Shown: positions 845 to 26,596, numbered from the stretch's first letter. The stretch: 32,000 nt of DNA from Pseudodesulfovibrio piezophilus C1TLV30 (GCF_000341895.1 NC_020409.1:3152411-3184410), one strand, 5' to 3'. The notes: a model not told the origin generated them from the letters alone. Made by a program: numbers and translations.

Positions 845-871
845 AGCGCCGCTTTGAAGGAGAGCAAATAC

Positions 872-2509: not shown

Positions 2510-2528
2510 CCGAGGGAGAGAGAAGACA

Positions 2529-3902: not shown

Positions 3903-3913
3903 CACTCCCATAC

Positions 3914-3949: not shown

Positions 3950-4070
3950 GAAAGAGGCCCGATTGCCACGACGTCCACCTTTTGACATTCCGGTCCGACG
4001 GGCTGGACCGGAATACTTCTCCGGCATTCGGACCTTTTTGAAAAGCCGTAACATACAAAGGATACGCAGC

Positions 4071-8799: not shown

Positions 8800-8988
8800 G
8801 ATAATTATTGAAAGTATGGAATAACGATAACTGATCGATATGTTAACCAGCCTTCCGCCATCCCCGGTCTGCGCCAATGCGCTGACGCACTGACCGAGAG
8901 AGAGCGGGGTCTGGGGGAAAGGATGAGGGAGAATCTCGCAAGAGGTTTTCCCGTCCCCCACCCGGTGAAGGCAGCACAGGAGATTGTC

Positions 8989-10673: not shown

Positions 10674-12758
10674 TTATGCTTTGCTCACGGTCACGAAATG
10701 TTCCTGCATGGCGATGGCTCCACCGCCTTTGTCCCACTTCGTGATTCCCTTGGGCATCAGTTCATTGTCGGCAACACCTCGCCCCTGTGCGCGAGATTCG
10801 CACGGGAGAGTGTGCCCGAAACCATGGATCATGAAGACTGCTTCAGGATGGATAAAATCAGTGACGAAGGCCTTTATTTCACCGGAATGGCCATTGTTGG
10901 AAATGGTGACGGTGTCATCAGTGCTGATCCCGAGTTTTTTGGCCCGTTCACTGTTGATCCACAAGGTGTTCTCGGGCATTTGTTCAAAGAGGAGTGAATT
11001 GTTGACCGTATGTCCCTGGGTATGCAGGGCACATCGGCCAAAGGTGATACGGAATTTGTCCAGAGGGGGAAGTTCTGGTGATTCATAAGGCTTGAGGGAG
11101 AGCTGGCCGTCTCCTTCCAGTTTCTCGTCAATGACCTGAACCTTGCCCGAAGGAGTCTTGAAAGAACCGTCCTTAACCGGTTTGTATGTTGGCGAATCAG
11201 CCAGATCCACAATTCCGGTTTCATCAAAGTCGGCAATGGAAACCCCTGTCCCTTCGAGCTGGAAGTTCCAAAGGTCTTCGACGTTGTCCATGGCCAGTTC
11301 ATCAAGCCCAAACCGTTTTGCCAGACCTGCGTATATTTCCCAGATGGCTTTGGTATCATAGAGTGGTTCCATGGCCCGTTTGCGCATTTGGAAACATGGT
11401 TTGGGGCCATTTTTGGTCATGATCTGATCGTCTCTTTCCAGATAGGGTGAGATCGGCAGGATGACATCAGAATACCAGGCGGTGTCTGACCAGGAAAATG
11501 TGACAGCAACCAGCAATTCGATGTTTTCCCACAATACCTTAACATCGGCAGAGTCTGGGAAGGCCATGAGAGGGTCATGGCGTTGGGCAATGTATGCCTT
11601 GACCGGATACGGGGAACCTTGGGCAACACTTTCATAGGCGAGATTGACTAATCCCGGTCCCGCATCAAAGTGCTTGCGTCCATCCATCCAGCCGATACCG
11701 TCTGCGCGTTGTCCTTCCGGTTTGGGATAGAGTTCCATGAAGCTTTTAAGTCCCTTGGCACCCACATCGCCGGGCTTGTTCATGAAAGGAAGGCCACCCT
11801 TGGCTCCGATAGCTCCGAGCAGGGCGTTGATTATGTACGCCGTGCGAGACATATAGAAGGAGTCCGAGTAGCGGGCGGTCATCCAACCAGGATGCCAGAC
11901 AACACTGGGCGCGGCCTCTCCGAGTTGCTGTGCAAGGTCGCGGATGGAATCTGCATTGACCCCGGTTTCTTTTTCGGCCCATTCCGGTGTGTACTGGGCG
12001 ACAAAGCTCTTGAGGGCGTCGAAATCCTGCATCCAATCTGCCACAAATTGTTTGTCATAGAGTTCTTCAGCGATAATGACATTGATGACGGCCAGGTTGA
12101 ATGCGTAATCTGTTCCGGGGCGAATCAGAAAGAAATTATCCGCTTTGGTCGCAGTGATGTTAGCACGAATGTCGATGACCGAGAGTTTGGCTCCGTTTTT
12201 CATGCCTGTCAGAACATTGTTGACTTCTGCAACATTGATTGCCTCGAAGATATTACGCTGCTGTACAATGATATGCTTGGCGTTCTTGAAATCATAAGAA
12301 ACACCCTTGCGGCCGAATCCGAAGACTGACAACGCTGCATTCTGCACGTTACGGGCGCAAGCCGAATCATGGTTGTTGTAATTGACCGTCCCAATCCCAC
12401 GCAGAAACGCACGGTAGAAATCTCTGAATGGACCTCCACGATCCGAAAAAAGAACGGAGTTCTTACCGTGTTCAGCCTGGATGGCCTTGAGTTTGTCTGC
12501 GACATGGTCAAGAGCTTCATCCCACGAGACTCGTTTCCATTTTCCTTCGCCTCGTTCTCCCTGACGAATCATCGGGTATTGAGGGCGTTCCTCATCGTAG
12601 GTGAGAGCAGTGCCAGCGGCACCGCGAGGACAGAGTGCACCCTTGAGAGCCTTCGGGCTTCCCTGAATGTATTCGGCCTTGCCATCCACCACTTCAACCT
12701 GAATGGGACAGCGGACCGAACACATGCCGCACATGCTGTTTACATATTCCTTACTCAT
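10674..12758 (-). CDS. Molybdopterin (bis-MGD) oxidoreductase catalytic subunit, PsrA/PhsA-like, no Tat signal
   Basis: N-terminal 4Fe-4S motif CGMCSVRC...C begins at residue 10. A candidate Mo-ligand context NHDSACARN is present, along with family-typical blocks (IRPGTDYA, SDVILP, FGHT). The ATG at 12758 follows AGGAGGAG. No RRxFLK twin-arginine leader. Confidence 0.88.
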   Translation of the reverse strand: MSKEYVNSMCGMCSVRCPIQVEVVDGKAEYIQGSPKALKGALCPRGAAGTALTYDEERPQYPMIRQGERGEGKWKRVSWDEALDHVADKLKAIQAEHGKNSVLFSDRGGPFRDFYRAFLRGIGTVNYNNHDSACARNVQNAALSVFGFGRKGVSYDFKNAKHIIVQQRNIFEAINVAEVNNVLTGMKNGAKLSVIDIRANITATKADNFFLIRPGTDYAFNLAVINVIIAEELYDKQFVADWMQDFDALKSFVAQYTPEWAEKETGVNADSIRDLAQQLGEAAPSVVWHPGWMTARYSDSFYMSRTAYIINALLGAIGAKGGLPFMNKPGDVGAKGLKSFMELYPKPEGQRADGIGWMDGRKHFDAGPGLVNLAYESVAQGSPYPVKAYIAQRHDPLMAFPDSADVKVLWENIELLVAVTFSWSDTAWYSDVILPISPYLERDDQIMTKNGPKPCFQMRKRAMEPLYDTKAIWEIYAGLAKRFGLDELAMDNVEDLWNFQLEGTGVSIADFDETGIVDLADSPTYKPVKDGSFKTPSGKVQVIDEKLEGDGQLSLKPYESPELPPLDKFRITFGRCALHTQGHTVNNSLLFEQMPENTLWINSERAKKLGISTDDTVTISNNGHSGEIKAFVTDFIHPEAVFMIHGFGHTLPCESRAQGRGVADNELMPKGITKWDKGGGAIAMQEHFVTVSKA

Positions 12759-12852
12759 CGTCTCCTCCTGAAAATCCGGGGGTAAATTGCAGTACTTTTT
12801 TGTAGAATGCACGCTAGCAACGTGCGTCAAGCAACTGCAACAAGTTACCCTG

Positions 12853-12870
12853 ATGTGAAAATTTTCACAT
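12853..12870. promoter_or_regulatory. Perfect 18-bp palindrome with CRP/FNR-type half-sites in divergent control region
   Basis: ATGTGAAAATTTTCACAT contains TGTGA-N6-TCACA exactly. It is followed immediately by TATAAT (12871-12876, inside the self-complementary ATTATAAT). It lies 95 nt from the Mo-enzyme ATG and 158 nt from the 4Fe-4S gene ATG. Confidence 0.5.
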
Positions 12871-13027
12871 TATAATCCCAAAAAAATAAAAAAAATGCTG
12901 AAGTCACACAGTAATTTTTGAGAAAAAAATCACAAGAAGGGGCTTCATTGACCAGTTTCTCTTTTTCCTTGAAAGGGAAACATATCATAAGAACTGCGCG
13001 CATTAAATCGATTTTAGGGGTGAACAG

Positions 13028-13477
13028 ATGGCCATTTACAAAATCAAGTTCGACAAGACGAGGTGCATCGCCTGTGATGCCTGCCTTGTCCACTGCAAGG
13101 TGAAGAACAAGGTTCCTGCCGGAATCAGCCTCAACCGACTGACGGCTGAGGGACCTCTTGCCGACAAGGATGGTAAGCCCACGGCTAAGCTTAAATATCA
13201 GCCGTGCCTTCACTGTAAGAAGCCGGGATGTGTCCCGGCGTGTCCCACAGGAGCCATGTACCAGCGAGAGGACGGTCTGGTCCTTGTTGATCTGGATAAG
13301 TGCGATGGATGCCAGTCCTGCATTGATGGCTGTCCGTGGCAGGTTCCCGTGTATAATGAAATGACCGGGAAGATCATGAAATGTGACTATTGCGTAGATC
13401 GGGTGGATGCCGGGGGCATACCTGCCTGCGTTACCGGCTGTACGGCCAATGCCTTGAGCTTCGTACGACCGGAATAG
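13028..13477 (+). CDS. 4Fe-4S dicluster electron-transfer subunit (DmsB/PsrB-like, small)
   Basis: Four Cys groups: CIACDACLVHC, CLHCKKPGCVPACP, CDGCQSCIDGCP and CDYC...C...C. No signal peptide. Confidence 0.88.
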   Translation: MAIYKIKFDKTRCIACDACLVHCKVKNKVPAGISLNRLTAEGPLADKDGKPTAKLKYQPCLHCKKPGCVPACPTGAMYQREDGLVLVDLDKCDGCQSCIDGCPWQVPVYNEMTGKIMKCDYCVDRVDAGGIPACVTGCTANALSFVRPE

Positions 13478-13557
13478 AGTGGTTTCGACCGAGTATCCGG
13501 GGGATATTCGGTGCAAATTTGAGGACTTTAACTTTATCTCTTTGAGGAGGAGTAACT

Positions 13558-14685
13558 GTGTTACGTTCCAACAAAATTCTCCTGATGCTGGCCCTCCTGG
13601 CCGTGGTCTGCTTTGTCGCAGAACCGGCATGGGCCGACCGTCTTGCTGAGGCTATTGCCGAGGCGAAACCCGAAGGTGAGCCTGGCTATCTCGGAATTCC
13701 CGGCGGTCCGCAGCTGAATGTCATGATCGGTCTCGTGTGGGCGATCTGGGTTGGCTGGATTTTCTCCACTGTCGGTGCATTTGGTGGAATCATGGCTGGT
13801 GTCGGCCATATCACCATTTACGGACTGGGCGACTACGCCAAGAGCTTCAAGAAAACCATGAAGCTGAACAAGGTTGTGACCGATTCCATCCGTGTCTCGA
13901 ACCAGTGGTTGGTCGGTTGCTCCGCAGCACTGTCTTCCTTCAACTACTACAAAGCTGGTCGTCTGGTTCTGCCCTTGGGTATTGCCCTTGCCATTGGAGC
14001 CGTGTCCGGTTCCTGGCTGGTTCCCTGGCTCACTGCCGGAAAGATCAGTCTGAAAGCGTATCTTGGCTACTTTGGTTTGTTTGTCCTGTTTCTGGGCTGC
14101 TACCTGACCTACGAGACAACTCCGAAGGGCCAAGCCAACAAAAAGGCCGCCAAAAAGGCCGCAGAAGCTTTTCAGAAATCTGTGAAAGAACAGCAGGCCG
14201 GTGGTCAGGTCGATCTCGCCGAGATGGGCGTTAAAGTCCAGAAGTTTACCCCGACAGCCTGTGAATTTACTTTCTTTGGTGTCGAGTTCAGATTCAATCC
14301 GCTGATTCCGGTTGTCGGTGGTTTCTTCATCGCAGCATTGGCTTCCTTCCTGGGCGTTGGTGGCGGCTTCCTGTTGGTGCCGTTCCTGACTTCCGTTGCC
14401 GGTTTGCCCATGTACCTTGTTGCAGGAACCTCTGCCATGGCCGTTTTCATTGGTATGGTCAACTCCATCGCTTCCTACATGTTGCTCAAGCAAACTCCTG
14501 TTGCCTGGGGACTGATTGGCGCTGAACTTATCGGTATCGTTATTGGTTCCGTTATTGGTCCCAAGACCTCCAAGTTCATCCCCGAGAAAGTACTGAAGTA
14601 CATCTTCATCTTCCTCGCCCTGTATGTGGGTATTCGCTATACCACCAAGGGTTTCCTGGGTCATTCCCTGGTTCCTCCCTTCTAA
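13558..14685 (+). CDS. TauE/SafE (DUF81) family anion permease with N-terminal signal peptide and long central loop
   Basis: GTG start 7 nt after GAGGAGG. Cleavable-looking leader ...FVAEPAWA. Two 4-TM halves carry the Gly-rich motifs VGAFGGIMAG and FLGVGGGFLLVPFL, separated by a Lys/Ala-rich hydrophilic loop. Confidence 0.8.
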   Translation: MLRSNKILLMLALLAVVCFVAEPAWADRLAEAIAEAKPEGEPGYLGIPGGPQLNVMIGLVWAIWVGWIFSTVGAFGGIMAGVGHITIYGLGDYAKSFKKTMKLNKVVTDSIRVSNQWLVGCSAALSSFNYYKAGRLVLPLGIALAIGAVSGSWLVPWLTAGKISLKAYLGYFGLFVLFLGCYLTYETTPKGQANKKAAKKAAEAFQKSVKEQQAGGQVDLAEMGVKVQKFTPTACEFTFFGVEFRFNPLIPVVGGFFIAALASFLGVGGGFLLVPFLTSVAGLPMYLVAGTSAMAVFIGMVNSIASYMLLKQTPVAWGLIGAELIGIVIGSVIGPKTSKFIPEKVLKYIFIFLALYVGIRYTTKGFLGHSLVPPF

Positions 14686-14711
14686 GTCGGGAAAACACCA
14701 ATTCAATCATT

Positions 14712-14736
14712 GGGGCCGCCCATAGTGGGCGGCCCC
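14712..14736 (+). repeat. GC-rich hairpin (GGGGCCGCCC-ATAGT-GGGCGGCCCC), member of a locally repeated motif
   Basis: Perfect 10-bp stem directly after the TauE-like stop, with no downstream T-run. A related copy sits at 15628-15656. Confidence 0.5.
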
Positions 14737-14755
14737 GCAAAAGACAGGAAACAGC

Positions 14756-15346
14756 ATGACGAGCCAAGCCATATACGAATTCCTTGACCCTTGGATGATC
14801 TGGGCATTTCGCACCAGCGACAACCCATATCTCGGGTTTGCCATAGGGCTTTTCTGGCTCTGCCTTCTCGCAACCATTATAGGTGAATTATGCATGGCTG
14901 GTATCTATTTCCTGAATGCCAAACATTTTTCAAAAATCAATCGGGATATGGTCAATCACCATAACTTGTCGGTTCAGGCCATCGGTGTGAAAGACAAGGT
15001 TGCGTGGAAAGCCTGCAACTCCATTGCCAATGAAGCCTTTGGCAAGAATTTCTTTTCTCATATTGCACTCTTTGCCTCATCATTGTGGATTGTTCCGTTT
15101 GGTATCGGCTGGCTTTTCTATCGATTCGGTTCAGTTGATTTCGTTGTTCCGTTTATCGGGCAGGTTGGACCTTCCTTTATCTTTATTCCTCTCTATATCT
15201 TGGTCCGTTGGTTGTTTGGTAAAGCCAAACCCTGGCTTCCGGTCTTCAAGACAATTCGTCGCAAGATCAAGGAAAACGAAGGGGAAGATGAGATGCTGTT
15301 GTTTTCGGATCTCATCAAAGAGAAAGAAGCTGTTCCCGGAAATTAG
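14756..15346 (+). CDS. Hypothetical integral membrane protein (196 aa)
   Basis: AGGAAA RBS. Several hydrophobic helices and an acidic/basic C-terminal tail. No family recognised. Confidence 0.6.
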   Translation: MTSQAIYEFLDPWMIWAFRTSDNPYLGFAIGLFWLCLLATIIGELCMAGIYFLNAKHFSKINRDMVNHHNLSVQAIGVKDKVAWKACNSIANEAFGKNFFSHIALFASSLWIVPFGIGWLFYRFGSVDFVVPFIGQVGPSFIFIPLYILVRWLFGKAKPWLPVFKTIRRKIKENEGEDEMLLFSDLIKEKEAVPGN

Positions 15347-15636
15347 GATATTTGAAGAGCCGCCCATGGAGTTGTCCATGAAAGTGGCTTTGGCGTATTG
15401 ATCGACCATGACGTGAAAGGCTTTTGGCGAAGGAGTGAATGTCAGCTTTCGCAAGCCTGTTTTGAGAAGCGATTGAACTCTGGTTGAAGGCTTTGGGCAG
15501 GGGGAATCAGCTCTGTTTTTGTTCTGATAAAAAGGGCCTTATCTCTCGTTTTGCACTCTTCTGGCCTGAGTTCTTTTCATACCGAGCGGCTGACTCTTTT
15601 CGTCAGTCCATCAGATTGGACTCTGGATTCAATCGG

Positions 15637-15660
15637 AGCCGCCCATGAAGGCGGCTTTTG
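15637..15660 (+). terminator. Rho-independent terminator (plus strand)
   Basis: AGCCGCC-CATGAA-GGCGGCT followed by TTTGTTCTTT. Confidence 0.6.
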
Positions 15661-15743
15661 TTCTTTGATAGTGTGTCGCACCCATTTCTTTTTGCAGTCA
15701 GTGCTCTTTTGGGAAAAAATAATTCTCTTGCGTTCATCATTGC

Positions 15744-15778
15744 AAAAAAAAGCACTGACTCAATAAAGAGGCAGTGCT
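15744..15778 (-). terminator. Rho-independent terminator for the minus-strand gene ending at 15800
   Basis: The minus strand reads AGCACTG-14 nt loop-CAGTGCT followed by T8. Confidence 0.7.
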
Positions 15779-15799
15779 TTCAATTCATGGGGAGAAAAT

Positions 15800-16318
15800 C
15801 TACAATTGTTTTGCAATTGTTTCGACATCCTTGGTGAATCCTTCCATGTCGGATGGGCCGAGCAGGTAGAAGCGTTCTTCTGTCTGAATACAGAGAACAT
15901 CAATACGATTGGCGACAATCACCGCTTCCTGCTTGTTTTTCAGTTCTGCAACACCGGAGCGGTAGCCGATAAATTCCATGAATTTTTTGGTTTTTCCAAT
16001 CTTGAAATCGTCATCAGTTTTTAAATTGGCGGGGAACACCTTGACCACCGAGGCCCATGGAATGACGGCACTGGCAAAGGGCGGTGCAGCCAGCAGAATG
16101 CCTTCATCTGCCACGGTAATGGCGGCGCGTTTCGGTGTAATGTATAACATATACCAATAAAAGATGGCGAGTGGACCAGCCACGGCAACCAGACAGATGC
16201 CTGTCCAAAGCAGGCCGGAGTTGAAACTCCAGGCCACGGCAGCGGCGATTGCCGCGACAAAGAGCAGAAATATGGTCAGAACCACCTTGCTCATGGGAAT
16301 TTTATAGATACGAGCCAT
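15800..16318 (-). CDS. Hypothetical membrane protein (2 TM plus ~110-aa soluble domain; possibly bacterial PH/YdbS-like)
   Basis: The ATG at 16318 lies 5 nt after AAGGAGA; the track start at 16408 was trimmed. Two N-terminal hydrophobic helices. The PH-like call is an impression only. Confidence 0.6.
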   Translation of the reverse strand: MARIYKIPMSKVVLTIFLLFVAAIAAAVAWSFNSGLLWTGICLVAVAGPLAIFYWYMLYITPKRAAITVADEGILLAAPPFASAVIPWASVVKVFPANLKTDDDFKIGKTKKFMEFIGYRSGVAELKNKQEAVIVANRIDVLCIQTEERFYLLGPSDMEGFTKDVETIAKQL

Positions 16319-16463
16319 GGAAATCTCCTTGTGAGTGCTGTTGCGCGCAGGGACAGTCATACGGTGTAAGAAAGCCATTGCCAAGTGATATAACGCCTTG
16401 GTCTGCATTGATAACTAGAGTACGCTTTGAGACGGATGTCTCAAACGGCCAAAGAGGATTGTT

Positions 16464-17432
16464 TTGAAAACACAGTCAATGACAAAACAGAGATCTGCTG
16501 CCTTCTTACACCAGTTTGTGACACTTCTTTGTGTAATGACGCTGTTTGTGTGTGCCGTGTCACTTTCCGGGTGTAGTGATGAAGAACCCGTGGTCAGGGT
16601 GGATTTGACCAGGCTGGCGAAGATTACCGCCCCGGAGCGCAAAGAAGCTATTACCTATGCCTATTTGCCTCAATATTCTCATACCATATCATACAAGCGT
16701 CACCGAGCACTGTTGCAGTATTTGAGGCAGGTCACCGGGCTGCCGTTGCGCCAGATATTTCCGGATACCTTTGACGAACACATTGCCATGGTTCAGCGTG
16801 GTGAGATCGATATCTCGTATTCCAATCCTTTTGTGTACATCAAGCTTGCCGAAGCAGGGGCCACGGCTTTTGCAAGGATCATCGAGCCGTCCGGCAAACC
16901 CAATTTTCAGGGACAGGTCATCTGTCGAGCTGATAATCCGACTATTGCCTCATTGAGCGATTGTCGGGGGAAGAGCTGGATTGCCGTGGACCCAGGGTCT
17001 GCCGGAGGATATCTTTTCCCACGAGGTCTTTTTTATGACCATGGTATCGGAATGAAGGACTTCTCCGAAGTGGATTTTGCGCCTGGACCGGGTGGAAAAC
17101 AGGAAAAAGTGGTGCTGGCGGTCCATGCGGGAGCCTATGATATCGGGACCATCCGAAAAGGAACACTGGATATTGTGGCCGGGAAGATTGATCTGAGTGA
17201 TATCCGTGTGCTGGCCGAGACCAGAAATTATCCCGGTTGGGTCTATTCAGCTCGAAAAGGGTTGGACCCCGAGGTCGTCAAGACGCTTGCTCAGGCCATG
17301 TTCGCTCTGGATTACGATAATGTTGATCAACAACGTATCCTGCGTGCGGCAGGCATGCGTGGTATCATACCCGCCAAGGATATAGACTATGATCCGGTTC
17401 GGGAATTGGCTGATAAACTGGGAATGAAGTAG
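16464..17432 (+). CDS. PhnD-like (phosphonate/phosphite ABC-type) periplasmic substrate-binding lipoprotein
   Basis: Lipobox LSGCS after a hydrophobic leader. PhnD-family blocks are present (YLPQYS, GEIDISYSNPFVY, WIAVDPGSAGGYLFP, AGAYD.GTI). No cognate permease or ATPase is nearby. The start is TTG at 16464 (AAAGAGGA upstream) or ATG at 16479. Confidence 0.8.
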   Translation: MKTQSMTKQRSAAFLHQFVTLLCVMTLFVCAVSLSGCSDEEPVVRVDLTRLAKITAPERKEAITYAYLPQYSHTISYKRHRALLQYLRQVTGLPLRQIFPDTFDEHIAMVQRGEIDISYSNPFVYIKLAEAGATAFARIIEPSGKPNFQGQVICRADNPTIASLSDCRGKSWIAVDPGSAGGYLFPRGLFYDHGIGMKDFSEVDFAPGPGGKQEKVVLAVHAGAYDIGTIRKGTLDIVAGKIDLSDIRVLAETRNYPGWVYSARKGLDPEVVKTLAQAMFALDYDNVDQQRILRAAGMRGIIPAKDIDYDPVRELADKLGMK

Positions 17433-17440
17433 GAGTGCTC

Positions 17441-19516
17441 ATGCGACTTGTTTCCAGGCTCAAATTTCGGACCAAGCTTAATCTCGGCATTTCCGCGATT
17501 CTCATAGCCATGGCTCTCCTACTTTTACCTCTGGTAGGCACCATGACATCCAAGACGTTGGTCGAGGAGAGCAAGAAACGCGGTTCAGCATTGGCTGAAA
17601 GCCTTGCGGCCCGAGCTGTCGAGCCTCTCCTCGCAGGCGATTTTCTGCGCCTGAAAAATATGGTTGATGAGCAGATAGCGGTTGGGGATGTGGTTTATGT
17701 TTTTGTCCAGGACAACCGGGGGCATGTGCTGACGCATACTTTTCACAAGGGATTTCCTACGGACCTGATCAAGGTCAATACCGTGGGGGACGGTTTGCTC
17801 GTTCATATCCAGTTGTTGGCTGATGGTGCTCAGCGTATCTATGATTTTGCATCACCCGTGGCAGTCGGGCGTGATCGGCTTGGCACGGTTCGGATAGGGT
17901 TATCCAAAACCCGTATCGAAGCTTCGGTGAACAGGCAACTGACCACCATGGCCGGGCTATTTGCTGGGGCGTTGTTCTTGGCCACCGCGCTGGGAACCAT
18001 TTTTGCCCGTCAGGTCGCTCTTCGGTTGGCGGCCCTCCGGCAGCACGCTGAGGCCATGTTGATGGGCAATCTCGATTCCCAATCCGGGCCATTGGACGGC
18101 GTGTATTGTTGGGAGCGGCAGGATTGCGGCCTGCGGTCCTGTCCGGCCTTTGGTGAGAAACAACGGCGATGTTGGTATATTGCCGGGACAATGTGCCCTG
18201 ATTGCAATGACGATGATACAACACAGGACTCCTGCCGGAGGTGTCGGGTATACCGGGAGAGTGCCGGGGATGAGTTACAGGATTTGGCGGAAACCTTTGA
18301 TGTCATGGCTCTCTCTCTGAAGACGCATATTGCGGAACTGCGCGGTGCTGAAAGGAATTTACGCGATCAGCAGCGGTTGATGCGAACTATTCTGGATGTC
18401 ACGCCTGACAGGGTCTCGCTGGTTGATAGCCGTATGCGCTATCAGGGGGCAAATAGGAGCTTTGCCGAATATGTCGGGCTGGCCTTGAATGAAATAGACG
18501 GCAAGACTGACTTTGATCTTTTTGATGAACAGACAGCAGAAGAACGTCACATGGCGGCACGGGATATTTTGCAGTCGGGTGAGCGGTTGGACACGCAGGT
18601 CATGGTTCGTGATGAAGATGGTGAACGCTGGTTCCACGTCGTGTGCATTCCGGTCTACAATGAGGATGGTAAAATCACCGGGCTGCTTCGGACAGATCGT
18701 GATATCACTGATATCAAAGGGTATGAGAAGCAACTCCTTCAGGCCCAGAAAATGGAATCCCTTGGTTTGATGGCTGGGGGTGTTGCCCACGAGATCAACA
18801 CTCCATTGGGTATTATCCTCGGGTACGCGCAACTGTTGCAGGAAGATGTGGAGCAGGGGAGCCTCATGCAACAGGACCTGACTGTCATCGAGAAACAGGC
18901 CAAGGTCTGCAAGAAAATCGTTTCGGACCTCCTCGGTTTTTCACGGCAGAGTCATTCCGCCAAGCGTGAAATGTGCTTCAATAATTCCGTGATGGAGGCA
19001 GTCAGCCTTGTTCGGCATACATTCGAGTTGAGCCGCGTTGAAATCGTGACTGAATTGGATGACCGTTTCCCTATCATTTATGGAGACCCGGAGAAATTGA
19101 AACAGGTCTGGATCAATCTGCTGACCAATGCCCGTGATGCCTATCCTGAAGCCGGGGGAACCATTGTCATCAGAACGAGGCTTGATACGCCGGGTGGCAT
19201 TGTCTCGCTTTGGGTCGCCGATACCGGACAGGGTATTGCCGGAGATGATCTCAAAAAGATTTTTGATCCGTTTTATAGCACCAAACCCGTGGGTTTGGGC
19301 ACTGGGCTTGGTCTCTCCGTATCCTTCGGGATTATCGAAGATCATGATGGTCATATCTATGCGGCCAGTCCGATTCCCCCGGAGTTCAAATTTCCAAGCA
19401 AGGGAGACCCCATGGGACCGGGAACTCTCTTTGAAGTCAATCTTCCTCTTGATCATAGTGTTGAGAGTCCCGTGGATATGAACTGCGCGCATGCAGTGGA
19501 AAATGATGAGACGTAA
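17441..19516 (+). CDS. Sensor histidine kinase (periplasmic domain, HAMP with Cys-rich insert, PAS, HisKA, HATPase_c)
   Basis: Two TM segments flank a ~140-aa periplasmic domain. H-box is HEINTPLG; N, G1 and G2 boxes are present (NLLTNARDA, DTGQGI, GLGTGLGLS). A PAS region is present. The ATG at 17441 follows GTAGGAG. Confidence 0.93.
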   Translation: MRLVSRLKFRTKLNLGISAILIAMALLLLPLVGTMTSKTLVEESKKRGSALAESLAARAVEPLLAGDFLRLKNMVDEQIAVGDVVYVFVQDNRGHVLTHTFHKGFPTDLIKVNTVGDGLLVHIQLLADGAQRIYDFASPVAVGRDRLGTVRIGLSKTRIEASVNRQLTTMAGLFAGALFLATALGTIFARQVALRLAALRQHAEAMLMGNLDSQSGPLDGVYCWERQDCGLRSCPAFGEKQRRCWYIAGTMCPDCNDDDTTQDSCRRCRVYRESAGDELQDLAETFDVMALSLKTHIAELRGAERNLRDQQRLMRTILDVTPDRVSLVDSRMRYQGANRSFAEYVGLALNEIDGKTDFDLFDEQTAEERHMAARDILQSGERLDTQVMVRDEDGERWFHVVCIPVYNEDGKITGLLRTDRDITDIKGYEKQLLQAQKMESLGLMAGGVAHEINTPLGIILGYAQLLQEDVEQGSLMQQDLTVIEKQAKVCKKIVSDLLGFSRQSHSAKREMCFNNSVMEAVSLVRHTFELSRVEIVTELDDRFPIIYGDPEKLKQVWINLLTNARDAYPEAGGTIVIRTRLDTPGGIVSLWVADTGQGIAGDDLKKIFDPFYSTKPVGLGTGLGLSVSFGIIEDHDGHIYAASPIPPEFKFPSKGDPMGPGTLFEVNLPLDHSVESPVDMNCAHAVENDET

Positions 19517-19525
19517 GGAGCTGTC

Positions 19526-19885
19526 ATGGCAAATATTATAGTAGTTGATGATGTTTCTGATGCCGGAATGCTGGTCAAGCGGATTCTCGAACGCAAGGGA
19601 CACAGCGTGACCGCTTTCACTGAGGAAGAGGAGGCTCTGAAACATGCCGCTGAAAAGCAGGTGGACCTGGCGATTCTTGATATCAAGCTTAAGAAAATGA
19701 CCGGCGTGGATGTGTTGGAAGAACTCAAGAAACTCAACCCCGAAACCAAGGCCATCATGTTGACCGGATATCCGACCTTGGAAACCGCACGGGAATCATT
19801 GCGTCTTGGGGCACAGGAATACTGTGTCAAACCCATTAATAAAGATGAACTGGAAACCAAAGTCGCCGAGGTCATGGGAGAATAG
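19526..19885 (+). CDS. Stand-alone receiver (CheY-like) response regulator
   Basis: DD at residues 8-9, phospho-acceptor context LAILDIKL, then LTGY and VKP. No output domain. Confidence 0.93.
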   Translation: MANIIVVDDVSDAGMLVKRILERKGHSVTAFTEEEEALKHAAEKQVDLAILDIKLKKMTGVDVLEELKKLNPETKAIMLTGYPTLETARESLRLGAQEYCVKPINKDELETKVAEVMGE

Positions 19886-19887
19886 AC

Positions 19888-22350
19888 ATGCATCTGTCCC
19901 AATTATTCAAGCACTGGACCTATCAGGTCTTTGCCCCTGGTACGTTGCTTCGACGCAAGTATGAAGCGTTCAAATCCTTGTTGCATCATGATGCTATCGC
20001 ACTGGAATTGATCGCTGATCTTGAAGAACTTTTTTACGGTGAGACTCTGGCGGATCGGCAACGGGCCAATCATTTGGCTGCACGGCTGACAGAGGCTGTA
20101 GGGACTATGGCGGGGCAATTGGTGGAGATGAATCCCACCGGATATATGGAATTACCTGAATATTTCCGCAAGATCGATTTTTATGTCCGCATGGCGCTGG
20201 AATTGGACCAGCCCGAAGTGGGGCCACCTTATATTCTGTCTTTGGAGGATGCTGCCAGTTTCCCTCGATTGGTTGGAGGTAAGGCGTGTAATCTTGGTCG
20301 TGCGACCCAGGTCGAGGGGGTTCCCATCCCGCCGGGATTGGTGGTCACGGCCAATGCGTTTAACTATTTTATTGATTATAACGATCTTAGTCATGAAATC
20401 GAGGATCGTCTTCGCCAGATGGTGGTGGGGGACCGCGACCTTCTGGCCCGACTGACCGGAGAAATGCAGGAATTGATCCTGGCGGCGGAAGTGCCTGAGG
20501 AAATAGCCCGGGGTATCCGATTTGCCGTTTCCGAGATTATTGACGGTGACGACCTTATTGCCGTGCGATCAAGTGCTCTTGCTGAGGATGGCGAGATATC
20601 TTTTGCCGGGCAATACGCCAGCGAATTGAATGTCCAGCCCAATGATGTTCTTGAAGCATACAAGCGGGTTCTGGCGGGCAAGTATTGTCCTCGCGCCGTT
20701 TCTTACCGTATTTCAAATGGGTTGACAGACAGTGATACGGCCATGGCTGTGTTGATTATACCTATGGTTGATGCGGATAATGCAGGCGTCGTGTATTCTA
20801 GGGACCCGGATTGCCGGGGAGGAGAAGCCATTGGCGTCTATGGGGTATGCGGATTGGGTGAGGGACTGGTGGACGGAAGCGTTTCTCCTGGGAAGGCTGT
20901 CTTGACTCGTGAGGAAGTCCCTCTTCTGGATACGGAATGCACGCCGGAGGAAGGTGGGCTTCCGCGGAAGGAAACACTGGAAGAGTTGGGCCGATTGGCC
21001 ATGGTTTTAGAGGATGCTTTCGGAGCGCCGCAAGATATTGAATGGGCGGAAGATGTCACCGGCAAACTGTTTATCCTGCAAACTCGACCATTGCAGGAAG
21101 AACGGGACGAAGCTGTGGTGGAACATGAACCTGTGGCTGCAGTCCCATTGGCTGACGGGTTGGAGAGGGCGTCTTCGGGAGTCGGGTGCGGAGAGGTTTA
21201 CTACGCGCCAACGGGCGAGAAAATTGCTCTTATTCCCGATGGGGCTATTGTCATGACCCCGAGTCTCAAACCGTCACTTCTGACTTTTATCGGTCGTATG
21301 AACGGCGTCATAGCCTCCACAGGCAGTCGGGCCAGTCATTTTGCTTCGGTGGCCCGAGAATCCGGTGTGCCTGTCCTTGTCGGTGAGTTGCCCACTCTTC
21401 CCGAATCTGGACAGGTGCTGACCGTGGATGGTTCCGGTGGGCGGGTTTTTGAAGGATGCGTGACATCGCTTTTGACTCGGGCCAAGGATGGCAACAAGGT
21501 CTCGCAACGTGTGGTGGACCAGTACTCCAAGGTTGTGCCGATTACGGTCAAGTTGAATCTGACCGACCCCAAGGCCGAAGAATTTTCCCCGGAGGGGTGC
21601 CGCTCCATGCACGATGTCGTTCGGTTTTGCCATGAGAAAGCCGTGGGAGAGATGTTCTCGATCGTGGATAAACGAGGGCGTGGCATGGGCGCGGCAAAGC
21701 GGCTCAAGACCGATTTGCCCTTGGTCATGTATTTGCTTGATCTGGGTGAGGGGTTCTTCTCCGGGGCGGCCAAGGAAAAGTTGGTGACTCCCCCGGATAT
21801 CAAGAGCCGACCCATGTGGGCGCTCTGGTATGGCTTATCCGATGAACGGGTGGAATGGCCCAGTCGGTTGACGCACATGGATTGGGAAGAATTCGATAAG
21901 GTTTCCGGCGGGATATTCAGTTTCGATTCCAAGCTTCTGGCGAGCTATGGGCTGATTTCTGAGGATTATCTTCATTTGATGATTCGTTTCGGATATCATT
22001 TTTCGGTAGTGGATGCCGTGTGCAGTTCGGACGAAGGACGCAACTATATCAACTTCCGGTTTAAGGGCGGTGGAGCAGGGTTCGACCAGCGATTGTTGCG
22101 TTTGGAATTCATCCGTGCTGTTCTGGAACGATATGGGTTTGAGACGTCGACCCGTGGAGATATGATTGATGCCAAGTGCTCCCGTCTGGATGAGAACGGA
22201 ACCCGTCTTCTGTTGGCTCGGTTGGGATATCTGATGGCTGTAACCCGGCTCATGGATATGCGGATGGAGACCATGGATCACGTGGAAAGCGAAGTGGAAC
22301 GGTTTATCACCGATGCGGAGCACAAAAATGCTGGGATGGAAAAAGCGTAA
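19888..22350 (+). CDS. PEP-utilising enzyme family protein (PPDK_N ATP-grasp plus phosphohistidine swivel domain; PpsA-like length, divergent N- and C-terminal regions)
   Basis: Motifs seen: GGKACNLG, VRSSALAEDG..SFAGQ, AVLIIPMV, GLGEGLVDG, QDIEWA...ILQTRP. The swivel domain follows with STGSRASHFASVARESGVPVLVG. Confidence 0.85.
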   Translation: MHLSQLFKHWTYQVFAPGTLLRRKYEAFKSLLHHDAIALELIADLEELFYGETLADRQRANHLAARLTEAVGTMAGQLVEMNPTGYMELPEYFRKIDFYVRMALELDQPEVGPPYILSLEDAASFPRLVGGKACNLGRATQVEGVPIPPGLVVTANAFNYFIDYNDLSHEIEDRLRQMVVGDRDLLARLTGEMQELILAAEVPEEIARGIRFAVSEIIDGDDLIAVRSSALAEDGEISFAGQYASELNVQPNDVLEAYKRVLAGKYCPRAVSYRISNGLTDSDTAMAVLIIPMVDADNAGVVYSRDPDCRGGEAIGVYGVCGLGEGLVDGSVSPGKAVLTREEVPLLDTECTPEEGGLPRKETLEELGRLAMVLEDAFGAPQDIEWAEDVTGKLFILQTRPLQEERDEAVVEHEPVAAVPLADGLERASSGVGCGEVYYAPTGEKIALIPDGAIVMTPSLKPSLLTFIGRMNGVIASTGSRASHFASVARESGVPVLVGELPTLPESGQVLTVDGSGGRVFEGCVTSLLTRAKDGNKVSQRVVDQYSKVVPITVKLNLTDPKAEEFSPEGCRSMHDVVRFCHEKAVGEMFSIVDKRGRGMGAAKRLKTDLPLVMYLLDLGEGFFSGAAKEKLVTPPDIKSRPMWALWYGLSDERVEWPSRLTHMDWEEFDKVSGGIFSFDSKLLASYGLISEDYLHLMIRFGYHFSVVDAVCSSDEGRNYINFRFKGGGAGFDQRLLRLEFIRAVLERYGFETSTRGDMIDAKCSRLDENGTRLLLARLGYLMAVTRLMDMRMETMDHVESEVERFITDAEHKNAGMEKA

Positions 22351-23413
22351 CAAATCTGCCGCGTATGAGGTGACATGGGTGACTGACCAGCTTGGTGTCG
22401 GCCATGCGCCCATGAGCTATCCTCAGCTTGAAGCTATCAGGGCGGAAGGAGTGGATGCCATCCTCAACTTGTGCGGTGAGTTCTGTGATCTGCATGATAT
22501 CGAAACCGGTGCCGGGTTTGAGGTGCATTATCTTCCTCTGGCCGATGAAGAAGCGCCTGGACTGATCGAGTTGGAAAAGGCATTGGAATGGCTTGATGAA
22601 GCGATTTATCTTGGTAAGAAGGTGCTTATTCACTGTCGCCATGGGATTGGCCGGACCGGGACAGTGCTCAATGCCTATCTGCTTCGACGAGGGTTGGGGC
22701 ACAAAATGGCAGGCAAGGCGCTCAAGAAACTCAAGAGCAAACCCGCCAATTTCGTTCAGTGGCGGACAGTACGCAAATACGGCAAACAGTCTGGCCAGCT
22801 CAGGGTGCGGGAACCGTCTCTGGAATTCAAACGACTGGTGGATCTCTCCCCGTTTTTTAATGATTATGAAGAAGTGGTTCAACGGGTGGAAGAGCGGGCC
22901 GGAAAAAATGGAGGAGGCGAAGCCTGCGGGCTGGATCATGATCAGTGTTGCCGGACACCTGTTCGGGTTTCGCTTGTGGAAGCAGTTCACATAAGCCACC
23001 GGATCAATACGGAACTGACCTGTGAGCAACGGCTTTCGGTCATTGAGCGTGCCGTTGAAACGGCGCAGGCTGAGCGGAGAGCAGCCTCTGCCATCGGCGT
23101 GGATGGGGAAAATCTGGAATACTGTCTCTCCGAAGTCGGTGCAGTCTGTCCTCTTTTGAGAAAGAGGCAATGCATGTTGTTTGAATACCGCCCTATACAA
23201 TGCCGTGCTTTTGGGCAGGATCAAAGTTTGGATGGAGAGCTGTGGAGCACACTCCTCACTCCGGCTCTTGAAAAAATTTCATCGGAAATCTGGTTTGCTT
23301 ATACCGGGTCAATGGCTGGCTCCCTTCCGCTTTTCTCTTTTCCTGACGTGGTCTCGGGAAAATTTATGGAAATGATCTTCAAGTTGATGATGGAACAGGG
23401 ATTGGAGTCCTGA
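22328..23413 (+). CDS. Dual-specificity (Cys-based) protein phosphatase fused to YkgJ/UPF0153-type Cys-rich domain
   Basis: P-loop VLIHCRHGIGRTG (the CX5R motif). The C-terminal half has C-x7-CC and CPLL...QC...RP..CR, typical of CxxCxxCC-family domains. The start is ATG 22328 or 22313, and either overlaps the upstream gene. Confidence 0.82.
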   Translation: MLGWKKRNKSAAYEVTWVTDQLGVGHAPMSYPQLEAIRAEGVDAILNLCGEFCDLHDIETGAGFEVHYLPLADEEAPGLIELEKALEWLDEAIYLGKKVLIHCRHGIGRTGTVLNAYLLRRGLGHKMAGKALKKLKSKPANFVQWRTVRKYGKQSGQLRVREPSLEFKRLVDLSPFFNDYEEVVQRVEERAGKNGGGEACGLDHDQCCRTPVRVSLVEAVHISHRINTELTCEQRLSVIERAVETAQAERRAASAIGVDGENLEYCLSEVGAVCPLLRKRQCMLFEYRPIQCRAFGQDQSLDGELWSTLLTPALEKISSEIWFAYTGSMAGSLPLFSFPDVVSGKFMEMIFKLMMEQGLES

Positions 23414-23433
23414 TCGCTGCTGAGAACGGAAAA

Positions 23434-23461
23434 CGCCCCTCGCGTCAAAGCCGGAGGGGCG
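23434..23461. terminator. Bidirectional terminator between convergent operons
   Basis: CGCCCCTC-12 nt-GAGGGGCG. Flanked by GGAAAA on the left and GTTTTTCTTTT shortly after on the right. Confidence 0.6.
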
Positions 23462-23505
23462 CAGAAGTTTTTCTTTTCTCCCTGCAATGTTCTCTTGGAG
23501 AAAAT

Positions 23506-24249
23506 TTAGCCCGTTATCACGAACAAATGCATCTCCCGTGGCCCGTGTGCTCCGTGTACAAGCTGGGCTTCGATATCAGCTGTTTTGGATGGGCCGGAAA
23601 TAAAGTTGAATGAAACCGGAAGGGTCTCGCGACTTTCCAGCTTTGCGTAGAGCTCCGAGAGGTTTGCCACCAGTTGGTTCAGGGTCAGAACAGCGATGTG
23701 AACCGAGGGGACAAGGGATGTGGCTCGCGCTTTTCCCGGTCCGCCAAGCACGGCGATAGCTGCGCAGTCGACCGCGCACCAATCAGCACCAGTCACACCT
23801 ATATAGGCACCCTCTGCCTGCTGGCGCAGTCGAGCTTTGCCTATGCTTTCATCTTCATTCTGGTTCAGGCTTGCGAGATCAACAGGAATGGCATCTTGTT
23901 GCAGCAGTGCATCAAGTCCGAGGCTTTCGAGTAGAGGAGTGTCATGCCTCGTTACCCGTTTCTTTCCTCCCCATTCCGTCTCTGTGGTGCGTACTCTTTC
24001 TGCGATACCGTTTCCTGCGTCTTGAGCTGTCGCGACTTCGTGAACATGGAGGTTGAGCGGGCCTGCATTTCCTTTCAAAATGGCAAGGAGGTCAAGCTGT
24101 TCATCCTTTTCCCTTTCTGCCGCAGCAAGCAGCGCGTCCAGTTCGCCTTTGGGGCGGGAAACAAAAAGGTCCGGGTTACCCGGAATTGTGTCTCGGCCAA
24201 GGGCGCGGCTCACCCGATTCAAGAAGGTCTGTTCGTTCTTATTCATCAT
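23506..24249 (-). CDS. lutC: Lactate utilisation protein C (LUD domain)
   Basis: 247 aa starting MMNKNEQTFL. LUD-type C-terminus (GPSKTADIE..LV.GAHGP...H). The start overlaps the lutB stop by 11 nt; the track start at 24600 was trimmed. Confidence 0.85.
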   Translation of the reverse strand: MMNKNEQTFLNRVSRALGRDTIPGNPDLFVSRPKGELDALLAAAEREKDEQLDLLAILKGNAGPLNLHVHEVATAQDAGNGIAERVRTTETEWGGKKRVTRHDTPLLESLGLDALLQQDAIPVDLASLNQNEDESIGKARLRQQAEGAYIGVTGADWCAVDCAAIAVLGGPGKARATSLVPSVHIAVLTLNQLVANLSELYAKLESRETLPVSFNFISGPSKTADIEAQLVHGAHGPREMHLFVITG

Positions 24250-25687
24250 TTCCCCCCTGGAGCCGTTTGGAGTGAATGGTTTTCCAGCGATCGGCAAAAG
24301 TCTTTTCGGGCATGGCTGGCAGATCGCGCGTGGCGGTCCATTTGCCAACCGGTCCGACCCCTTTGCTGAGGACGCCCCGGCGAATGAACGGGAGCTGGAC
24401 ATATCGTCCACTTTTGACCAAAAAATCGTACAACCTTCTGTCGGACATGGCCAAAGCCCATGCCTTGAAAGCCAGCGCTTCCATCGTACCAACCGGCTGG
24501 ACATTCCATTGCGAGTCACCATAGGCAAGCATGTACCGTAACTCGGAAAGCATGCGGGGAAGGTCATTTTGCACCGGGCAGATGTCTTTGCATGCGCCAC
24601 ATAATGTTTCGCCCCGGCAGAGGTCGGCGTACTTGTTCACGCCATCAAAGAGCGGCATGACCACGGAACCGATGGGGCCAGGATATGGGCCGTTGTAAGC
24701 ATGACCTCCAATCCGGCCATAGACGGGACAGATATTCAGGCACCCCCCACAGCGAATACAGGCCAAGGCCTCTCGAAATCGAGGATCAGCCAACATCTTC
24801 ATCCGTCCGTTATCTATAATGACCAGATGGAACTCTTCCGGGCCATCTGCCTCTCCCGGTTGGCGGGGACCTCCTAGAAAGCTGACATACGTTGAGACTT
24901 TCTGGGCAGCGGCTCCACGGGTGAGCAGGCGCAGGAGCATGTCATGCTCTGCTAGGGTGGCGGTTACCCGTTCCATGCCCATGAGTGCAACATGCACCTT
25001 CGGCATACTGGTGGACATGCGTATATTACCCTCATTGGAAACCAATGAGATATGGCCTGTTTCGGCGCAGGCTATGTTGCATCCGCTCAGCCCCATGTCG
25101 GCGGAAAGCAGCTTTTCGCGCAAGGCTTTGCGGGCAGCTTTGGTCAAGGTCGGGGGATCTTCCGAGTATGGTATATTGAGCTTTTCCTGAAAAAGTTTTC
25201 CTATCTGCTGGCGGTTCATGTGAATGCAGGGTGCGATGATATGAGATGGTGCATCACCGGCCAATTGGATGATGAACTCACCGAGGTCCGTTTCTACCAC
25301 TTCGATGCCGTTTCCCTCCAGCAGAGGGTCAACTCCTATTTCCGTGGAGGTCATGGACTTTCCCTTGACCACACGGCGCACATCATTTTCCCGGGCCACT
25401 TCCAGACAGTATTGACTGGCTTCTTCTGCGGTTTCGGCAAAATAGACATGCCCACCGTTGGCCCGTATTTTTTCGGCCAAGGTCGCCAGGATGGTGTCGA
25501 GATTATTCAGTGTGCGCATTCGAGCTTCCTTGGCTCTGCTGCGCAAAGTCGGGTCAATTTCTTTCCACGCTCCCTGTGTGCCTTTGCCTATGCGATCCTG
25601 AATCATCCTGATAGAAGCGTGCAGTTTGTCATCTGCAATGGCTTCTCCAGCCAGTTTGCTATATGTCTTATCGCTGTTCCGGTGCAT
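24239..25687 (-). CDS. lutB: Lactate utilisation protein B (LUD domain plus 4Fe-4S)
   Basis: CIRCGGCLNICPVY and CGACKDICPV ferredoxin motifs plus an N-terminal LUD domain. Tightly packed after lutA. Confidence 0.92.
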   Translation of the reverse strand: MHRNSDKTYSKLAGEAIADDKLHASIRMIQDRIGKGTQGAWKEIDPTLRSRAKEARMRTLNNLDTILATLAEKIRANGGHVYFAETAEEASQYCLEVARENDVRRVVKGKSMTSTEIGVDPLLEGNGIEVVETDLGEFIIQLAGDAPSHIIAPCIHMNRQQIGKLFQEKLNIPYSEDPPTLTKAARKALREKLLSADMGLSGCNIACAETGHISLVSNEGNIRMSTSMPKVHVALMGMERVTATLAEHDMLLRLLTRGAAAQKVSTYVSFLGGPRQPGEADGPEEFHLVIIDNGRMKMLADPRFREALACIRCGGCLNICPVYGRIGGHAYNGPYPGPIGSVVMPLFDGVNKYADLCRGETLCGACKDICPVQNDLPRMLSELRYMLAYGDSQWNVQPVGTMEALAFKAWALAMSDRRLYDFLVKSGRYVQLPFIRRGVLSKGVGPVGKWTATRDLPAMPEKTFADRWKTIHSKRLQGGNDE

Positions 25688-25689
25688 GG

Positions 25690-26436: not shown

Positions 26437-26596
26437 TATTCTGGATGATTAAGAGGTGAAATATGTGTTTGGGAGTCAGAATGGTGCACCCTTCGCCAGG
26501 AACTTGCAAGGTGTTTCGTGATGATATAAAAATACGGCGTGTTAGATGTACTTACAGGATTGTCAAACTTGCCATTGTTCATTTCAGGGGGCTTTC

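Follow-up and report, generated by a model that had tools for sequence, protein, structure and literature searches.

Introduction

The 'nitrate cluster' of Desulfovibrio (DVU0251-DVU0245 / Dde_0597-Dde_0605) was published by Korte et al. in 2014 (PMC4001038). Table 3 of that paper lists a TauE protein, a hypothetical protein, a PhnD/PtxB-like solute-binding protein (SBP), a PAS/HAMP kinase, a receiver-only response regulator (RR), a PPDK_N/mobile-domain protein and a dual-specificity phosphatase (DSP). Loss of function of the cluster gives resistance to nitrate, not to nitrite, and this effect is seen in both D. vulgaris and strain G20 when the TauE, SBP, RR or dikinase gene carries an insertion (PMC4001038). 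In G20, mutants of the cluster show a mild defect on thiosulfate, and it was proposed that nitrate leaks into the cell through a thiosulfate transporter (PMC4001038). A fitness compendium for D. vulgaris strain DvH does not mention these genes (PMC10102598). Nitrate injection is used against souring by sulfate reducers, and one documented way in which these become resistant to nitrate is by losing this cluster. Here we describe a locus in a stretch of 32,000 nucleotides (nt) from Pseudodesulfovibrio piezophilus C1TLV30 (NC_020409.1:3152411-3184410), called the window below, with all coordinates counted from its first letter. On sequence comparison, the locus is the Pseudodesulfovibrio ortholog of the nitrate cluster. 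A preliminary description of five of its genes, made from the DNA alone, had stated that no system of this composition had been described. The orthology makes that statement incorrect, and the locus is a new member of a published cluster rather than a new system.

Several other described systems share parts with this locus. Phosphoenolpyruvate (PEP) synthase (PpsA) and pyruvate phosphate dikinase (PPDK) have, in common with the 820-amino acid (aa) protein encoded in the window, an ATP-grasp domain and, after it, a phosphohistidine swivel in which a His and an Arg are conserved. The 820-aa protein differs from them in that it has an unrelated domain of 300 aa in place of the TIM barrel and an extra domain of 125 aa at the N-terminus. 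Rifampin phosphotransferase (RPH), GWD and the phenol-/hydroxyphenylethanone-type kinases follow the same logic, the phosphoryl group passing from ATP to the swivel His and then to a non-pyruvate acceptor in a dedicated domain. The swivel of RPH is C-terminal whereas that of the 820-aa protein is central, and their acceptor domains are unrelated. Unlike the window dikinase, the RPH/GWD-type dikinases are neither paired with a phosphatase nor placed under a two-component system. In plants, though, GWD together with SEX4/laforin pairs a phosphohistidine dikinase with a DSP-fold phosphatase in a reversible cycle. The window dikinase differs from plant GWD in having no carbohydrate-binding modules, another domain order and a bacterial signalling and transport context.

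VadK (Rv1127c) of Mycobacterium tuberculosis is a protein of ~490 aa and is not known to have a C-terminal domain of the type found in the 820-aa protein. Like the latter, VadK is derived from PPDK with loss of the PEP/pyruvate domain, and it acts as an autophosphorylating regulatory kinase (PMC13400623). It belongs to a different lineage and the paper on it describes no phosphatase, receiver or transporter partner (PMC13400623). On the sensory side, TtrS and ThsS, kinases that respond to tetrathionate and thiosulfate, sense via PhnD-like domains (PMC5408782). As is proposed for the SBP of the window, this PF12974 module is used for sensing and not for transport, and in both cases it is found near a thiosulfate-reductase-like gene (PMC5408782). 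In the window, by contrast, the PhnD-like module forms a lipoprotein of its own, a Cache domain is part of the kinase and the regulator has no DNA-binding output.

Orthology with the nitrate cluster

The region 13558-23413 carries the same seven families in the same order as Table 3 of Korte et al. (PMC4001038). Gene lengths are also close, the RR gene being 360 bp in both, the hypothetical gene 588 bp (published) and 591 bp (window) and the phosphatase gene 1110 bp and 1101 bp. A profile built from divergent members recovered loci from Nitratidesulfovibrio, the genus of DvH, and Oleidesulfovibrio, the genus of G20. These loci, L083 (Nitratidesulfovibrio sp. HK-II) and L085 (Oleidesulfovibrio sp.), both contain, in order, genes for DUF169, TauE, a 196-aa protein, Phosphonate-bd, a histidine kinase (HK), an RR of 119 aa, PPDK_N/mobile and DSP proteins. 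The seven window proteins are collinear with them at 32-76% identity: TauE 59-66%, hypothetical protein 32-40%, SBP 59-64%, HK 52-53%, RR 75-76%, dikinase 42-46% and phosphatase 38-46%. The composition which had been thought undescribed is thus collinear with loci laid out like DVU0251-0245 / Dde_0597-0605.

There are differences between the window and the nitrate cluster. A gene for a bacterial PH-domain (bPH) protein is inserted on the opposite strand in the window, a divergent PhsA-like gene and a further hypothetical gene lie where the nitrate cluster has DUF169, and the kinase gene, a pseudogene in D. vulgaris (DVU0248), is intact in the window. The boundary originally drawn round five genes was too narrow since the functional unit also takes in the TauE gene and the gene for the 196-aa membrane protein (13558-15346). 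The published work on the nitrate cluster consists of phenotypes, to which the present analysis adds the C-terminal domain of the dikinase, the gene fusions and the transporter neighbours. Four points appear to be new in the literature searched: the fusions, the strict pairing of dikinase and phosphatase across Desulfobacterota, the absence of the PEP/pyruvate domain together with the presence of an uncharacterised acceptor domain, and the association with transporters.

Conservation across Desulfobacterota

In a reference scan that took a single genome for each species, 77 loci were found, and conservation counts were taken over the 52 loci whose dikinase homolog was at least 36% identical. 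All five genes were present in 32 of the 52, most of the others being truncated contigs, and the receiver gene was adjacent in 45. The arrangement exceeds chance by far. The preliminary description had regarded the five genes as one functional unit and had named a lack of synteny outside the strain as a finding that would count against it. The genes were found to be syntenic across Desulfobacterota, and its view of a conserved unit is borne out. In five Desulfobacterales loci (L032, L035, L040, L041 and L045) the receiver-kinase-SBP half is inverted after the phosphatase gene yet is still adjacent, which indicates selection for linkage and not merely an inherited gene order.

The catalytic residues of the dikinase, receiver and kinase are all invariant, and those of the phosphatase likewise with the exception of D78, present in 34 of 35 homologs. 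The receiver has an identity floor of 54-88% across loci, above those of the SBP, HK and dikinase; the DSP domain of the phosphatase is similar (57-91%).

The 820-aa dikinase

The ATP-grasp domain of the 820-aa protein (PPDK_N, PF01326) covers aa 128-410 (E=2e-68) and the swivel domain (PEP-utilizers mobile domain, PF00391) covers aa 449-518 (E=6e-13). The GSRASH motif is encoded at 21322-21339, with the codon of the swivel His484 at 21337-21339, and both H484 and R490 are invariant in 48/48 homologs. The flanking regions, aa 1-125 and aa 521-820, had no Pfam match even at E<=10; the former carries a near-invariant FKHWTYQVF motif.

Public annotations call this protein 'pyruvate, water dikinase' or 'phosphoenolpyruvate synthase'. 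However, the TIM barrel which binds PEP/pyruvate (PF02896, PEP-utilizers_C) was absent from the dikinase in the Pfam scan, and the NCBIfam models for PpsA gave only 249 bits against a cut-off of 598 (NF005057) and 238 bits against 740 (TIGR01418). The PpsA match consists of two stretches, both inside aa ~127-565, with none past the swivel region, and the solved structures of PEP synthase and rifampin phosphotransferase match aa ~110-565 only. RPH structures 5hv1 and 5fbs are among the best matches in the PDB, and the score with the RPH model NF041857 is 162 bits against a cut-off of 999. The missing TIM barrel and the scores under the equivalog cut-offs effectively rule out an ordinary PEP synthase, and the protein is misannotated as such in public databases. 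The preliminary description had called it PEP-utilising and PEP-driven. This is a misnomer because the PEP/pyruvate domain is absent and 'PEP-utilizers' is simply the Pfam name of the swivel domain. Judging from the families to which its domains belong, the description that fits the 820-aa protein best is that of an 'X, water dikinase'-type phosphotransferase, the expected phosphoryl donor being ATP bound by the ATP-grasp domain.

The C-terminal domain was examined further. A profile search of the PDB with this domain found no sequence. A first AF2 model, made with 17 close homologs, had a pLDDT of 70 and gave no structural match. A second model, made with 113 diverse sequences including representatives of clusters at 50% identity, reached a pLDDT of 89 and a pTM of 0.82 and has a mixed alpha/beta fold. 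When the latter model was compared with the PDB using Foldseek, the best match had E=0.026 with TM<=0.24 and no RPH chain was matched. Conserved polar residues in the domain include HDxxRxxHE, RFGYH, FRFKGGG, TRLMD, R218 and D270. An exhaustive profile search placed the domain in at least 1315 clusters at 50% identity, nearly always at aa ~520-840 of proteins of 800-870 aa with the same architecture.

The phosphatase and its pairing with the dikinase

The DSP domain of the phosphatase extends over aa 36-157 (PF00782, 47 bits vs 33.5; PF22785, 64.7 bits vs 27). Its HCRHGIGRTG motif is found at aa 107-116 (22631-22660) with the catalytic Cys108 at 22634-22636. The HCx5RTG signature (C108, R114 and T115) is invariant in 35/35 homologs, and D78 is the general acid. 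The second half of the protein contains a domain with six Cys residues (aa 205-297, 22925-23203), and all six, C205, C212, C213, C279, C287 and C297, are invariant in the same 35/35 homologs. The preliminary description had called this region YkgJ-type; its match to that family, PF03692, is sub-threshold (16.4 bits, cut-off 23, E=0.016), and its motif reads Cx6CC...Cx7Cx9C as opposed to the CxxCxxCC of PF03692.

A phosphatase with its Cys-rich half lies directly 3' of the dikinase gene on the same strand in all 47 of the loci with downstream sequence. In two cases the genes are fused in frame, giving proteins of 1252 aa (P0167) and 1205 aa (P0189) in which both halves are complete and the Cys-rich domain is included. 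Both fusions lie behind SBP-HK-RR genes. The two proteins share no more than 43% identity and were found in separate datasets, so that frameshift artefacts are ruled out and the fusion must be both genuine and old. The genetics of D. vulgaris point in the same direction: the DVU0246 (dikinase) mutant is nitrate resistant but the DVU0245 (phosphatase) mutant is not, having a fitness of -6.04 (PMC4001038). Opposite phenotypes are expected of antagonistic enzymes acting on one switch. The proposal, made in the preliminary description, that the kinase-like and phosphatase-like proteins are coupled is therefore strengthened by the 47/47 pairing, the two fusions and the opposite phenotypes in D. vulgaris (PMC4001038), and a functional coupling of dikinase and phosphatase is supported.

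The sensory genes

The SBP scores under every NCBIfam equivalog cut-off for phosphonate, phosphite and selenate transporters; with TIGR03431 (PhnD) it reaches 90 bits against a cut-off of 261 and so is not a PhnD equivalog. No ABC ATPase or permease was found in the cluster here or in the homologous loci examined. The SBP had been described as lacking transporter partners, and this holds for ABC partners but not for transporters in general as the TauE-family permease lies 1.8 kb upstream. The lipoprotein is a candidate co-sensor.

Canonical two-component features are present, namely the HisKA His, HATPase_c and a receiver with a conserved Asp pocket. All 32 of the 32 homologs compared keep His452 of the kinase. 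The kinase also has an insert of 46 residues (aa 225-270; CWERQDCGLRSCPAFGEKQRRCWYIAGTMCPDCNDDDTTQDSCRRC), placed after its second membrane segment and before the HAMP domain ends, that contains eight Cys residues, seven of which (C225, C231, C236, C246, C254, C267 and C270) are invariant in the 32 homologs while C257 is found in 30 of them. No Pfam family matched this cytoplasmic insert, which may be an Fe-S, zinc or other metal redox-sensing module. In the receiver D8, D9, D52, T80, Y99 and K102 are invariant in 43/43 homologs, and Pfam finds no output domain, as the preliminary description had said.

An oxyanion is a plausible ligand for the SBP. The PhnD-like sensors TtrS and ThsS, the PhsA-like neighbour and the thiosulfate phenotype of G20 point to a sulfur oxyanion as the leading candidate for both ligand and cargo.

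Transport genes associated with the dikinase

The TauE gene adjoins the module in ~21 loci. Relative to the Pfam model, the TauE protein has a signal-peptide-like N-terminus (aa 1-50) with a conserved EPGYLGIPG. It also has a conserved hydrophilic central loop of ~60 aa (aa 185-240) reading …GVKxxKFTxTxCxFTFxGVEFxFNP, which is a candidate regulatory or phospho-acceptor region. Desulfopila has genes for TauE, a small hypothetical protein and the dikinase in that order, with no phosphatase and no cognate SBP-HK-RR adjacent. In one locus (L078) the genes immediately upstream of the module encode a YeeE/YedE-type Sulf_transp permease, TusA and a Se/S-carrier protein. In Maridesulfovibrio a PF03601 membrane protein is encoded near the dikinase-phosphatase pair, and the place of SBP-HK-RR is taken by another kinase with a regulator of the sigma-54 type.

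A subfamily of paralogs of ~1030 aa (L046-L067, for example L054 7944-12835) shows no more than 35% identity and has no phosphatase partner. In ten of these loci permeases of the CitMHS/Na-sulfate-symporter type with TrkA_C are encoded directly downstream, and elsewhere TrkA K+ channels or P-type ATPases are nearby. These paralogs have a lectin/ConA-like C-terminal extension whose match is sub-threshold (26.3 bits vs 27). The repeated occurrence of the dikinase family beside unrelated transporter families suggests that it regulates transport.

The PhsA-like molybdopterin (Mo-pterin) oxidoreductase and the 261-aa open reading frame (ORF) beside it are divergent from TauE, and they are kept next to it in ~20 Desulfovibrionaceae loci. 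The oxidoreductase is closest to the thiosulfate reductase PhsA, at 509 bits against the NCBIfam cut-off of 694, and a reading of its N-terminus revealed no Tat signal. It may be a cytoplasmic sulfur-oxyanion reductase supplied by the TauE permease.

Proposed mechanism and alternatives

The best overall explanation, towards which we lean with modest confidence, is that an oxyanion sensor controls an ATP-driven phospho-switch which regulates anion transport. The system would have two parts, the membrane proteins TauE and 196-aa (13558-15346) and the five-gene operon (16464-23413). The ligand of the lipoprotein would be a tetrahedral oxyanion, thiosulfate or another sulfur oxyanion being the most plausible, and the lipoprotein would signal to the Cache/PAS kinase, to which the 8-Cys insert may add a redox or metal input. 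The kinase would phosphorylate the stand-alone receiver, and this would gate the dikinase by protein-protein contact. The ATP-grasp domain of the dikinase would then use ATP to form His484~P on the swivel, from which the phosphoryl group would pass to an acceptor bound by the C-terminal domain. Once the acceptor is phosphorylated, anions would be transported by way of TauE and the 196-aa protein, and the Cys-based phosphatase would undo the phosphorylation and turn transport off. The net output would be post-translational on/off control of TauE anion transport, with nitrate admitted incidentally. Of these steps, the ligand and the action of the receiver on the dikinase are what we infer. VadK is a precedent for a regulatory kinase derived from PPDK (PMC13400623).

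The analysis gives a testable model in which an ATP-driven His484 kinase is set against a Cys108 phosphatase under control of a receiver, with anion transport as the target. If the substrate is a transporter then a new class of regulatory kinase would be defined. A wider generalisation, which we offer only tentatively and regard as rather doubtful, is that there is a large family of swivel kinases whose C-terminal domain steers ATP-derived phosphate to transporters or their accessories, and that in the subfamily of the window dikinase the process is reversed by a dedicated metal-binding Cys phosphatase and gated by a stand-alone receiver. If this wider reading is true, it would represent a new post-translational control of transporters and a new class of two-component output outside the Hanks-type kinases and the phosphotransferase system (PTS).

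Several observations weigh against the transport switch or against details of it. The link to the DVU and Dde genes runs through congeneric genomes and matching layout and lengths rather than through alignment to the strain sequences, and DVU0246, at 744 aa, is shorter than the dikinases of the loci described here (PMC4001038). The G20 phosphatase mutant has a value of +2.08, the same sign as the other mutants, and the results for DVU0250 conflict between pooled and isolated mutants (PMC4001038); the genetic antagonism consequently rests on one organism. The D. vulgaris kinase DVU0248 is a pseudogene, yet the receiver and the dikinase still matter (PMC4001038), so the linear order SBP-HK-RR-dikinase may be wrong. 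Many loci of Desulfobacterales have no TauE gene next to the module, and the Maridesulfovibrio pair is preceded by a different two-component pair. The phospho-acceptor, which we infer, could be a protein (the transporter, the 196-aa protein or some other) or else a small molecule, and the invariant polar residues of the C-terminal domain resemble the active site of a small-molecule enzyme more than a surface for protein docking.

This last point leads to a second explanation, possible though distinctly less probable than the transport switch, in which a small molecule or polymer (a metabolite, a sulfur/oxyanion adduct or a glucan) is phosphorylated by the dikinase and the product removed by the phosphatase, the two-component pair regulates this metabolism and the transporter, not itself the target, supplies or removes the compound. 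The dense invariant motifs HDxxRxxHE, RFGYH, FRFKGGG, R218 and D270 are typical of a catalytic pocket, and most of the characterised relatives (PpsA, RPH, GWD and the phenol-/hydroxyphenylethanone-type kinases) act on small molecules or glucans. The best Pfam matches of the phosphatase are to DSP-PTPase clades, one of which is named for a fusion with NAD+ kinase, and the conserved neighbours include the PhsA-like enzyme as well as, in L078, TusA and the Se/S-carrier protein. However, the cluster has no further metabolic genes to use a phosphorylated product, and the recurring neighbours belong to unrelated transporter families and are not enzymes. The lectin/ConA-like extensions of some paralogs might suggest a carbohydrate, but besides falling below threshold they occur in a different subfamily, and a carbohydrate-binding module is absent from the subfamily of the window dikinase. 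For this reason a glucan cycle of the GWD/SEX4 kind was rejected as such and survives only within the small-molecule explanation.

The pseudogene in D. vulgaris also bears on a third explanation, as the receiver and dikinase mutants of that organism are strong and of the same sign although the kinase is not intact. The dikinase could be an ATP-driven phosphodonor or modulator of the receiver (swivel His to Asp52), reset by the phosphatase, with the state of the receiver being the output on a transporter or on motility proteins. The receiver gene is 2 nt from the dikinase gene, the identity floor of the receiver is high, a CheX gene follows the operon in L082, and the dikinase has its conserved and unexplained N-terminal domain with FKHWTYQVF. 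Transfer from a swivel His to a receiver Asp is, though, without a known example in this enzyme family, Cys-based DSPs are not known to act on aspartyl-phosphate, and the conserved 300-aa C-terminal domain would be left unexplained. Moreover, the dikinase-phosphatase pair persists with the sigma-54-type regulator of Maridesulfovibrio, and the Desulfopila dikinase has no stand-alone receiver adjacent to it. We consider this explanation improbable. That the 820-aa protein is after all an ordinary gluconeogenic PEP synthase or PPDK beside unrelated signalling genes is what the public annotation names would imply, and the top NCBIfam and PDB matches are indeed PEP synthases. Against this are the lack of PEP-utilizers_C, the 249 bits against 598, the end of the solved-structure matches at ~aa 565 followed by a domain unrelated to solved structures, and the strict synteny and fusion with the phosphatase, which together make it barely credible.

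Operon layout and neighbouring genes

The features of the locus and its surroundings are collected in Table 1. An ORF check of the preliminary description confirmed the five genes, their coordinates and their spacing: they are tightly packed on the + strand with gaps of 8, 9 and 2 nt and then an overlap of 23-38 nt. Pfam and NCBIfam agree with its domain calls for the lipoprotein, the kinase, the receiver-only regulator, the PPDK_N/swivel protein and the DSP. Two starts are possible for the kinase (17435 or 17441) and for the phosphatase (22313 or 22328). The likely ones are the ATG codons at 17441 and 22328, the latter giving the 23 nt overlap, and both are also the starts chosen in gene calls made independently by JGI for a metagenomic contig of identical sequence, with an HK of 691 aa from 17441 and a phosphatase of 361 aa from 22328. 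Scans for promoters and terminators within the operon gave nothing above shuffled expectation, and an Rfam scan of the window found no families.

Table 1. Coordinates of features in and around the locus, in order along the window.
Feature	Coordinates	Strand	Basis or remark
Mo-pterin oxidoreductase, PhsA-like	10674..12830	-	Pfam Molybdopterin, Molydop_binding, Fe4S4
Conserved hypothetical, 261-aa ORF	12845..13630	-	Between PhsA-like gene and TauE; syntenic at 30-45% identity
TauE/SafE-family (TSUP) anion permease	13558..14685	+	PF01925 E=4.8e-25; homolog at DVU0251/Dde_0598 position
GC hairpin without U-run, between TauE and 196-aa genes	14711..14737	+	dG -26.8 kcal/mol, z = -4.7
196-aa membrane protein	14756..15346	+	32-40% identical to 196-aa gene of L083/L085; DVU0250/Dde_0600 position
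Terminator-like hairpin and U-run ending the TauE/196-aa unit	15635..15668	+	
Bacterial PH-domain (bPH_5) membrane protein	15800..16408	-	PF10882 E=1.3e-7
PhnD/PtxB-like periplasmic solute-binding lipoprotein	16464..17432	+	PF12974 (Phosphonate-bd) E=3.6e-57; lipobox LSGC
Membrane histidine kinase	17435..19516	+	sCache_3_2, HAMP, PAS, HisKA, HATPase_c (Pfam)
8-Cys insert, HAMP region of kinase	18107..18244	+	Kinase aa 225-270
Stand-alone receiver, 119 aa	19526..19885	+	PF00072 (Response_reg) only
820-aa 'X, water dikinase'-type phosphotransferase (from family membership)	19888..22350	+	PPDK_N and phosphohistidine swivel
C-terminal domain of dikinase, 300 aa (aa 521-820)	21448..22347	+	No Pfam/PDB relative
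Cys-based dual-specificity-type phosphatase with 6-Cys domain	22313..23413	+	DSPc / Tc-R-P match
GC hairpin between convergent phosphatase and lutC genes	23433..23462		Folding; U-run better placed on minus strand

Neither the 196-aa membrane protein nor the 261-aa ORF had a Pfam or NCBIfam match. The hairpin at 14711-14737 has a perfect stem of 12 bp, and none of 200 shuffles folded as well. Its core, GCCGCCCAT, recurs at 15359 and 15638 (3 matches vs 0.42 expected), and the hairpin may serve in the processing or stability of the mRNA or may represent a small repeat. The hairpin at 23433..23462 is probably a bidirectional terminator. The bPH_5 gene is found in Pseudodesulfovibrio and some Desulfovibrionaceae loci only, is absent from L083 and L085, and is lineage-specific and probably not part of the system.

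Further from the locus, nif cofactor genes are present on the + strand (nifE 6012-7430, nifN 7261-8799 and nifB with a NifX-like tail 8923-10263), and long ORFs at 854-5246 may be further nif genes. On the other side, the region 23506-26436 has on the - strand, convergent with the operon, a LutC-like gene (LUD domain, Pfam) and two more ORFs which from their translations are putative LutB and LutA genes. An ABC_sub_bind solute-binding gene is found at 26546-27559. In L083 the gene directly downstream of the cluster (14190-18017, - strand) encodes a 1275-aa protein with a SIR2_2 domain, possibly a defence gene.

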